Source: Escherichia coli (GTDB lineage: Bacteria; Pseudomonadota; Gammaproteobacteria; Enterobacterales; Enterobacteriaceae). Taken from it: DNA of 64,000 nt. The notes below the pieces were generated by a model. The model was not told the origin of the DNA. It was given only the letters and a program-made list of their open reading frames with translations, and did no database searches. Location of the stretch: assembly GCF_003334815.1 (NCBI RefSeq), contig NZ_QOWO01000012.1. One strand, written 5' to 3'. The position numbers were made by a program, and so were the translations under genes. Shown in pieces: positions 63,784-63,880 of this stretch. Each line of letters begins with the position of its first letter. Positions within the stretch are counted from its first letter, which is position 1.

Positions 63784-63880
63784 GGTGCGGGTTTTCCCCT
63801 CTCCCTAACCCTCTCCCCAAAGGGGCGAGGGGACCGTCCGGTGCAGTTTTTGGGTTTGACATCAGCCTCACGGGAGGCTG
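63784..63880. repeat. GC-rich intergenic palindromic element (boxC-like) plus hairpin
   Basis: ttttcccctctccctaaccctctccccaaaggggcgaggggac and CAGCCTCacggGAGGCTG; family assignment from memory only. Confidence 0.4.

Follow-up and report, generated by a model that had tools for sequence, protein, structure and literature searches.

Between yihS and yihR, in a K-12-like Escherichia coli, lies a 138-nt spacer that holds a conspicuous succession of oligo-C and oligo-G tracts. Its presence raises the question of whether the element serves the genes on either side of it or is one copy of a repeat found throughout the species and, if so, where such a repeat comes from. Here we address this question in a window comprising the whole 64-kb stretch of DNA that was analyzed, in which yihU, yihT and yihS are encoded on the plus strand. 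The answer leads to BoxC, a family that has been known since 1992 and that has been studied as a triplex-forming, instability-associated repeat. BoxC was reportedly treated by Bergler in 1992 and by Bachellier in 1999, and PIT elements are said to have been the subject of work by Hoyne and Maher in 2000-2002. To our knowledge, no origin or mechanism has been established for BoxC.

Identity and anatomy of the yihS-yihR element

According to Holder et al. 2015 (PMC4666352), the motif termed TMECO is the element earlier named BoxC and PIT. Their Table 1 compiles 23 TMECO copies in E. coli K-12 MG1655, among which no. 21 is CCCTCGCCCCTTTGGGGAGAGGGTTAGGGAGAGGGG, of type 'A mm', in the K-12 yihR/yihS intergenic region. 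The minus strand of positions 63796-63831 of the window is letter-for-letter this copy, and the boxC-type assignment that the first-pass annotation had put forward tentatively is thereby confirmed. The published TMECO consensus (CCCTCNCCC-N3-6-GGGNGAGGG-N3-GGGNGAGGG; PMC4666352) likewise matches the window only once, on the minus strand of 63797-63831, and matches none of 100 shuffles. The supplement of the same paper gives distances of 27 nt between no. 21 and yihS (printed 'yhiS') and of 49 nt between no. 21 and yihR, which fit the window if the yihR start is taken to be the older ATG at 63882. The copy presents the features of type A, with a TTA second loop and one Watson-Crick mismatch in the stem. 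Its third block is GGGAGAGGGG, whereas that of the other 22 K-12 copies is GGGTGAGGG(G/T/C); in the yihS-yihR allele of strain Z1323PEC0010 the third block has the usual form. The yihS-yihR element is already catalogued and, being known, is of low interest in itself. We are highly confident that it constitutes one dispersed, non-coding BoxC/PIT/TMECO copy (no. 21, type A, one mismatch) within a lineage-variable segment of about 71 nt. The spacer and its borders contain the following features.

63766..63768, plus strand: stop codon (TAA) of yihS
63781..63857, no strand assigned: extra segment of about 71 nt in the K-12-type spacer, absent from the BoxC-free allele, with edges fuzzy by a few bases
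63783..63791, plus strand: G-block GGGTGCGGG, 4 nt upstream of the motif, with predicted imperfect pairing to C-block 1
63796..63831, minus strand: BoxC/PIT/TMECO core, type 'A mm', TMECO no. 21 (consensus match, Table 1 identity, flanking-gene distances and block check)
63796..63805, plus strand: C-block 1 CCCCTCTCCC, complement of the third (Hoogsteen) block
63809..63832, plus strand: inner hairpin of C-block 2 CCCTCTCCCC, loop AAA and G-block GGGGCGAGGGG, with 9 of 10 positions paired
63833..63846, plus strand: outer flank ACCGTCCGGTGCAG, common to other E. coli copies (GGGGACCG(T/A)(T/C)CG...)
63858..63886, plus strand: locus-specific hairpin of GACATCAGCCTC, loop ACGG, GAGGCTG, a bulged T and ATGTC
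63906..63908, plus strand: conserved start codon (ATG) of yihR (RefSeq annotation and allele alignment)

The limits of the extra segment were obtained by aligning K-12 against O157:H7, strain 3150 and PK8275, in which the 441-nt query spans about 370 nt. Within this segment, the plus strand carries in order CCCCTCTCCC (63796-63805), TAA, CCCTCTCCCC (63809-63818), AAA and GGGGCGAGGGG (63822-63832), and the G-block is able to pair with either C-block. The first-pass annotation had described an imperfect dyad of oligo-C and oligo-G tracts. Such an inverted repeat is indeed found where it was placed, with 11-nt arms at 63795-63805 (TCCCCTCTCCC) and 63823-63833 (GGGCGAGGGGA) that are 91% complementary and lie 17 nt apart, but the element is made of three blocks, two of C and one of G, and is no simple dyad. 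Read on the minus strand, the core is CCCTCGCCCC-TTT-GGGGAGAGGG-TTA-GGGAGAGGGG, in which the third block mirrors the second perfectly (10/10) and 9/10 positions of the Watson-Crick stem pair; the position of C-block 1 reads CCCCTCACCC in other BoxC copies. Since the outer flank ACCGTCCGGTGCAG is common to other copies, it belongs to the repeat unit of about 56 bp. The G-block GGGTGCGGG at 63783-63791 may in turn be left over from an inverted partner module, of which it would be the last block (GGGTGAGGG), a reading suggested by the BoxC pair between hrpB and mrcB, which has GGGGTGAGGGC-16 nt-ACCCTCACCC at its center.

The evidence that the C/G element exceeds chance is its repetition, not its folding energy. 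The 37-nt core folds as RNA at -17.2 kcal/mol with z = -1.8 (-1.6 to -1.9 across fold runs against dinucleotide shuffles), and the 97-nt stretch 63784-63880 yields z = -0.4 as RNA. These scores are unremarkable because shuffles of such biased composition fold too. For either strand, folded as DNA or RNA, C-block 2 and the G-block are partners in the predicted minimum-energy structure. Taken as a whole, the 138-nt spacer has a more stable fold than its shuffles (z = -2.5). Of the two structures for which a folding calculation had been proposed, it is thus the second hairpin that stands out (z = -4.5 for RNA, about -6 for DNA), whereas the C/G element is not exceptional by energy.

This second hairpin is present at the location given in the first-pass annotation, where CAGCCTC (63863-63869) and GAGGCTG (63874-63880) form an inverted repeat of 7 nt with 100% complementarity and a loop of 4. 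It is longer than had been described, its full arms (GACAT+CAGCCTC and GAGGCTG+(T bulge)+ATGTC) extending over 63858-63886 and, as it is not common to the paralogous copies, it is not part of the BoxC repeat. In alleles free of BoxC, the outer arms (ACGACAT...ATGTCGT) are conserved and enclose a different inner stem, and the hairpins are more stable still, at -20 and -24 kcal/mol (z = -4.5 and -3.9); the hairpin maps to similar places in alleles with and without BoxC (L008 321-355, L009 320-357). It is therefore a separate, older, locus-specific structure upstream of yihR, with BoxC immediately 5' of it, and it may serve in the processing or stability of mRNA. The ATG at 63882 that opens the 308-aa K-12 model of yihR is out of frame in most alleles, owing to a 4-nt indel, or reads ATA; judged from these alignments, the yihR start should be set at 63906, giving 300 aa as in RefSeq. 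In annotation, 63796-63831 can be labeled as BoxC/TMECO no. 21 and the neighboring hairpin treated as separate.

Dispersal, strain variability and local function

A search for related copies, also proposed in the first-pass annotation, bears out the dispersed nature of the element. With the spacer as a megablast query, the 5,426 complete E. coli genomes yielded 20,403 places, distributed over 4,293 of them (median 4, maximum 12 copies per genome); 20,396 of these places are chromosomal and 7 are on plasmids. In genomes without the full spacer, the matching part corresponds to query positions 24-82 (window 63792-63850). Paralogues occur at frlR/trpS, eutH/eutG, yjgR/lptG (in two strains), ytfR/ytfQ and between dusC and a monooxygenase gene. 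Six paralogous copies from these five other loci have the core TTCCCCTCACCCTAACCCTCTCCCCAAAGGGGCGAGGGGACCG in common, their similarity stopping a few bases beyond it, and the paralogous copies cease to share sequence with the window at about 63846-63850. The shared unit measured among copies, of about 56-59 nt, agrees with the 56 bp quoted for BoxC, for which 32 copies are given (PMC2267715). The same sequence is thus found at dozens of unrelated sites and in either orientation. Within the 64-kb window, neither the copy search nor the consensus match returned a second BoxC copy, and no Rfam family was found at the element by an E-value scan of the region or by a gathering-threshold scan of the window.

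Copy numbers appear to differ among strains. In the few rows inspected, BoxC-like places number 1-2 in B2 strains such as Nissle and NRG 857C, 3-4 in O157:H7, and 7-9 in several strains such as O111:H8 and O104:H4. The spacer between yjgR and lptG contains BoxC in some E. coli and REP plus other sequence in K-12 and JJ2434, so that different repeat families alternate at one spot; the notion of a simple empty site at yjgR/lptG was rejected, given that K-12 has REP there.

At yihS-yihR, the 441-nt query distinguishes two main spacer alleles, which differ by about 71 nt, the K-12 allele being the longer. Of the 5,426 genomes, 2,248 contain at least 80% of the K-12 spacer and 1,665 a BoxC-free spacer of 66-67 nt; by subtraction, the locus is absent or too divergent in the remainder. 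In Salmonella, the gap between yihS and yihR measures 3-18 nt and has no BoxC repeat, and BoxC was therefore presumably gained within Escherichia. Allele alignments revealed neither a target-site duplication nor a sharp insertion boundary at the indel, so that the choice between insertion and deletion within E. coli falls to the outgroup alone. In one divergent genome (86.7% identity), the element is truncated, with the first C-block missing and a perfect hairpin still in place. A truncated copy in a divergent yih allele suggests that the element is old at this locus, and the short allele may then reflect a secondary loss. Two further contigs encode a YihS of 85-86% identity, and the gene that follows it is unlike the yihR of the window. 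A predicted protein of 700 aa (P0003), 92% identical to the YihS of the window, combines a YihS-type and an aldose-epimerase Pfam domain and, from its domain content, looks like a YihS-YihR fusion.

This distribution bears directly on any local function. A cis-acting RNA element of the yih operon, working either by partial intrinsic termination or by blocking 3'-exonucleases so that yihS mRNA is stabilized and yihR tuned, would be in keeping with the stable hairpin (-17.2 kcal/mol), with the TTTTT run at 63847-63851 and with a 138-nt spacer that folds better than shuffles (z = -2.5). The T-run, however, starts 14 nt past the stem, as opposed to the 0-2 nt of an intrinsic terminator, and no terminator-like or promoter-like site was scored in the spacer. 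The same genes are kept without the element in 1,665 E. coli genomes and in Salmonella, the sequence recurs in both orientations at dozens of sites that have nothing to do with the operon, and PIT elements displayed no promoter or terminator activity in earlier tests, as summarized in PMC4666352. We consider a regulatory RNA of this kind improbable. An even fainter case can be made for an element acting through a G-quadruplex in DNA or antisense RNA. The minus strand does contain a four-tract motif (GGGG-AGA-GGG-TTA-GGG-AGA-GGGG; tracts of at least 3 G, loops of 1-7 nt), but its first two tracts double as the purine arm of a strong hairpin whose other arm is the adjacent C-block, the C-rich strand is the one present in the sense transcript, and the 18 sharp imino signals recorded for TMECO oligonucleotides fit a triplex and not a G-quadruplex (PMC4666352).

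The remaining readings concern what kind of sequence this is. An intergenic, GC-rich, palindromic and multi-copy element invites comparison with REP/BIME units mobilized by a REP-associated tyrosine transposase, the more so since BoxC and REP occupy the same yjgR/lptG spot in different strains. Block structure and sequence are nevertheless unrelated to REP: the REP core (e.g. GCCGGATGCGGCG) has no match with up to 2 mismatches in 63769-63906 and 23 matches elsewhere in the window, in line with the initial remark that the element is unlike the REP units found there. The REP-like matches lie at about 6.5, 25.8, 30.9, 39.8 and 54.2 kb of the window, and the Rfam models naRNA4 and ES036 have matches at some of these sites and none in the spacer. 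The REP/BIME reading is refuted at the sequence level, and we accord it practically no probability. The same negligible weight goes to a chance GC-rich palindrome, or to the 54-codon minus-strand ORF at 63755-63919 being a real small gene. That ORF figures in the mechanical ORF list and the fold z-scores of the C/G element are unremarkable, yet near-identical copies occupy many unrelated loci, and the ORF, which runs across the indel and is lost in the BoxC-free allele, exhibits no sign of coding; copy number refutes this reading. As regards the rest of the window, REP/BIME clusters were located at 6486-6515, 25799-25828, 30898-30936, 39750-39963 and 54234-54263, several of them matched by naRNA4 and ES036, and further Rfam matches comprise SECIS_3 (49043-49101), the ClpQY promoter element (12125-12182) and the L31 leader (7461-7513).

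A dispersed BoxC copy thus remains the preferred reading, and its published biophysics suggests how it may behave. TMECO sites are unusually variable between strains, and oligonucleotides of the family, of both types A and B, form a purine-motif intrastrand triplex in vitro according to CD and NMR, while in vivo DMS footprinting detected no stable triplex (PMC4666352). When single-stranded, the G-rich minus strand of the window copy could accordingly adopt the intramolecular purine-motif triplex that others have documented in vitro with members of the family. As part of the yihS-yihR transcript, the C-rich strand would form a G:C hairpin of 9-10 bp in two alternative registers. On the K-12 map, we take the G-rich strand to be the genomic plus strand, at about 4.07 Mb and clockwise of oriC. 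With these map positions, the G-rich strand would be the lagging-strand template, on which a hairpin or triplex might form transiently. The copy would have arrived by insertion within the Escherichia lineage, through whatever process spreads the family, and would persist as a selfish or near-neutral passenger as opposed to a regulator of the yih operon.

Three-block modules beside DUF559 genes

Relatives of the element were sought by scanning species-representative genomes for the three-block motif. The matches listed came from Mitsuaria and three metagenome-assembled genomes (MAGs), with no Enterobacterales locus among them: about 0.9 Mb of Mitsuaria chitosanitabida contains more than 140 copies of the motif, and others lie in Methylomirabilota, in Contendobacter and in another MAG. 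The loops and flanks of the motif are specific to each lineage. In Mitsuaria, 27 of the 30 close pairs are inverted, and two paralogous ORFs of 139 aa are each bracketed by modules. Both ORFs belong to DUF559 (Pfam PF04480, E = 2e-39) and are homologues of E. coli YcjD (E = 1e-26). Most of the Mitsuaria chitosanitabida modules, which match the motif exactly, form -/+ inverted pairs with 25-272 nt between them; the outer flanks (AGCCCGAAGA ... TCTTCGGGCT) are conserved and sub-repeats occur inside, an arrangement that is REPIN-like. A RAYT-type (Y1) transposase between the Mitsuaria copies was sought and discarded as a candidate, none being encoded among the adjacent or intervening ORFs, which are DUF559.

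Modules and gene also meet in E. coli. In K-12 (NC_000913.3, ~1351205-1351459; L139 7206-7460), ycjD ends with ...RRSPSP* inside a degenerate BoxC hairpin, and a partial duplicate of its last ~45 nt follows just after the gene. TMECO no. 9 lies 167 nt downstream of ycjD, between ycjD and fabI. We take fabI (envM) to be the region from which BoxC was first described. In phylogroups A, B1 and C, ycjD occupies the site of the eefRABCD operon of other E. coli lineages (PMC12817139). Within the 64-kb window, tblastn found no DUF559-like coding sequence.

To gauge the breadth of this association, YcjD was used in a profile-free search of 1.84 billion representative proteins, which returned 25,064 matches, and the best 150 of these 25,064 DUF559 representatives were scored for peptides that the motif could encode, with the following outcome.

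Best 150 of the 25,064 DUF559 representatives: full three-block motif in 30, hairpin part in 83
The same 150 sequences reversed: full motif in 0, hairpin part in 3
120 YihS homologues: full motif in 0, hairpin part in 0

Among the best 150 of the 25,064, motif peptides in '+' orientation stand before the domain and those in '-' orientation after it. The DNA of three representatives confirmed the motifs on all three metagenomic contigs, two of which have the order [module +]-DUF559-[module -] between conserved neighbors, in one case ruvB and an acyl-CoA thioesterase gene. The named DUF559 members come from Planctomycetota, Rhodospirillales and other Pseudomonadota.

A blind sample was then drawn from annotated plasmid and chromid records, consisting of eight YcjD-like genes from Azospirillum, Sphingomonas, Picosynechococcus, Synechocystis, Neisseria, Deinococcus, Sinorhizobium and Klebsiella. 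By eye, all eight genes have C/G-tract three-block modules within ~170 nt. A strict generic detector reported modules in 6 of the 8 loci of 1.1 kb, compared with 1 motif in the 150 kb taken as a control from three of the same replicons. This detector requires a pure C/T arm and is hence conservative, since it misses the mismatch-bearing copies of E. coli, for which its zeros are uninformative. The block variants at these loci are lineage-specific; blocks across the family as a whole include GGGAGAGGG, GGGGGAGGG and GGGGG. Module orientation is (+)gene(-) in Sinorhizobium and in the metagenomic contigs, and (-)gene(+) in Deinococcus and Synechocystis. In Neisseria, the DUF559 gene is flanked by direct repeats of ~80 nt.

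What these data show is an association: three-block modules lie immediately beside DUF559 genes in E. coli, Mitsuaria, Klebsiella, alphaproteobacteria, Deinococcus and metagenomic contigs. In the open-access papers searched, we found no link of DUF559 or ycjD to BoxC, PIT or TMECO.

A proposed origin for BoxC pairs and solo copies

The internal layout of E. coli BoxC pairs can be compared with that of the gene-bearing cassettes. The pair between hrpB and mrcB reads (CCCTCTCCC-TGT-GGGAGAGGG-CCG-GGGTGAGGG)-16 nt-(CCCTCACCC-TAA-CCCTCTCCC-TCAA-GGGAGAGGG). In one metagenomic cassette (L141), the upstream module has a TCG loop and the downstream module a TAA loop, a layout equal to that of the hrpB-mrcB pair, with a gene in place of the 16 nt. 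Two metagenomic cassettes have a 'type B'-like module upstream of the nuclease gene and a 'type A' module, with its TTA loop, downstream. All five inverted pairs of K-12 consist of one type B and one type A copy (PMC4666352), and by the Table 1 coordinates of the same source the B-then-A order holds in 4 of the 5.

On these grounds, we propose that BoxC/PIT/TMECO elements are the cognate repeats of DUF559 (YcjD-type, Vsr-fold) nuclease genes, as REP elements are for RAYT, with pairs representing the gene-less unit and solo copies single end-modules, and with the nuclease spreading or maintaining the modules or homing to their pairs. We regard this proposal as evenly balanced between being right and being wrong. 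Under it, the inverted B+A pairs of E. coli would be cassettes in which the gene has been replaced by a few bases, and the window copy would be a type A module from the downstream end, in the same orientation as yihS and yihR, that derives from such a cassette and has no gene of its own. The nuclease could spread or maintain the modules, or the modules could be the target, in pairs, of a homing-type gene. More speculatively, a YcjD-type nuclease might recognize the folded module with its conserved stem mismatch, or might cleave between paired modules.

Several known systems help to place the proposal. The window copy resembles the BoxC/PIT/TMECO family in its consensus, TTA loop, single mismatch, intergenic site and strain variability, and differs from it in a third block, GGGAGAGGGG, that perfectly mirrors block 2. 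With REP/REPIN sequences and their RAYT genes, BoxC shares a population of short, structured, intergenic repeats, single or in inverted pairs, in which many copies are gene-less and one or few flank a small nuclease-type gene, here DUF559/YcjD. The analogy is functional only, as the sequences are unrelated and the partner of BoxC has a Vsr-type PD-(D/E)XK fold and is not an HUH/Y1 transposase. Like the miniature elements (MITEs) of enterobacteria, such as ERIC/IRU, BoxC is a small non-coding insert with presence/absence polymorphism, and its E. coli pairs are composed of an end-module, a short spacer and an inverted end-module; the window copy, in contrast, is a single end-module without a terminal inverted repeat of its own, and no target-site duplication was found for it. 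The succession of pyrimidine, purine and mirror purine blocks on one strand, with 9/10 Watson-Crick pairs and a 10/10 G.G/A.A mirror, recalls H-DNA-like triplexes, although the triplex has been seen only in vitro, with related oligonucleotides, and not in vivo (PMC4666352).

On the protein side, DUF559 proteins of the YcjD type belong to the Vsr/PD-(D/E)XK fold family, as do Vsr-like endonucleases such as I-Bth0305I (PMC3239194), and their closest solved chain is PDB 3HRL, an 'endonuclease-like protein' (E = 1e-27). In the literature searched, no activity, target or mobility is reported for DUF559, in contrast to the Vsr-like homing endonucleases.

The association with DUF559 offers a lead to a possible explanation of the origin of BoxC. 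If the link is true, the origin of BoxC would become testable with one small gene, ycjD, and defined DNA substrates, and DUF559, which numbers more than 25,000 representatives at 50% identity, would acquire its first functional context.
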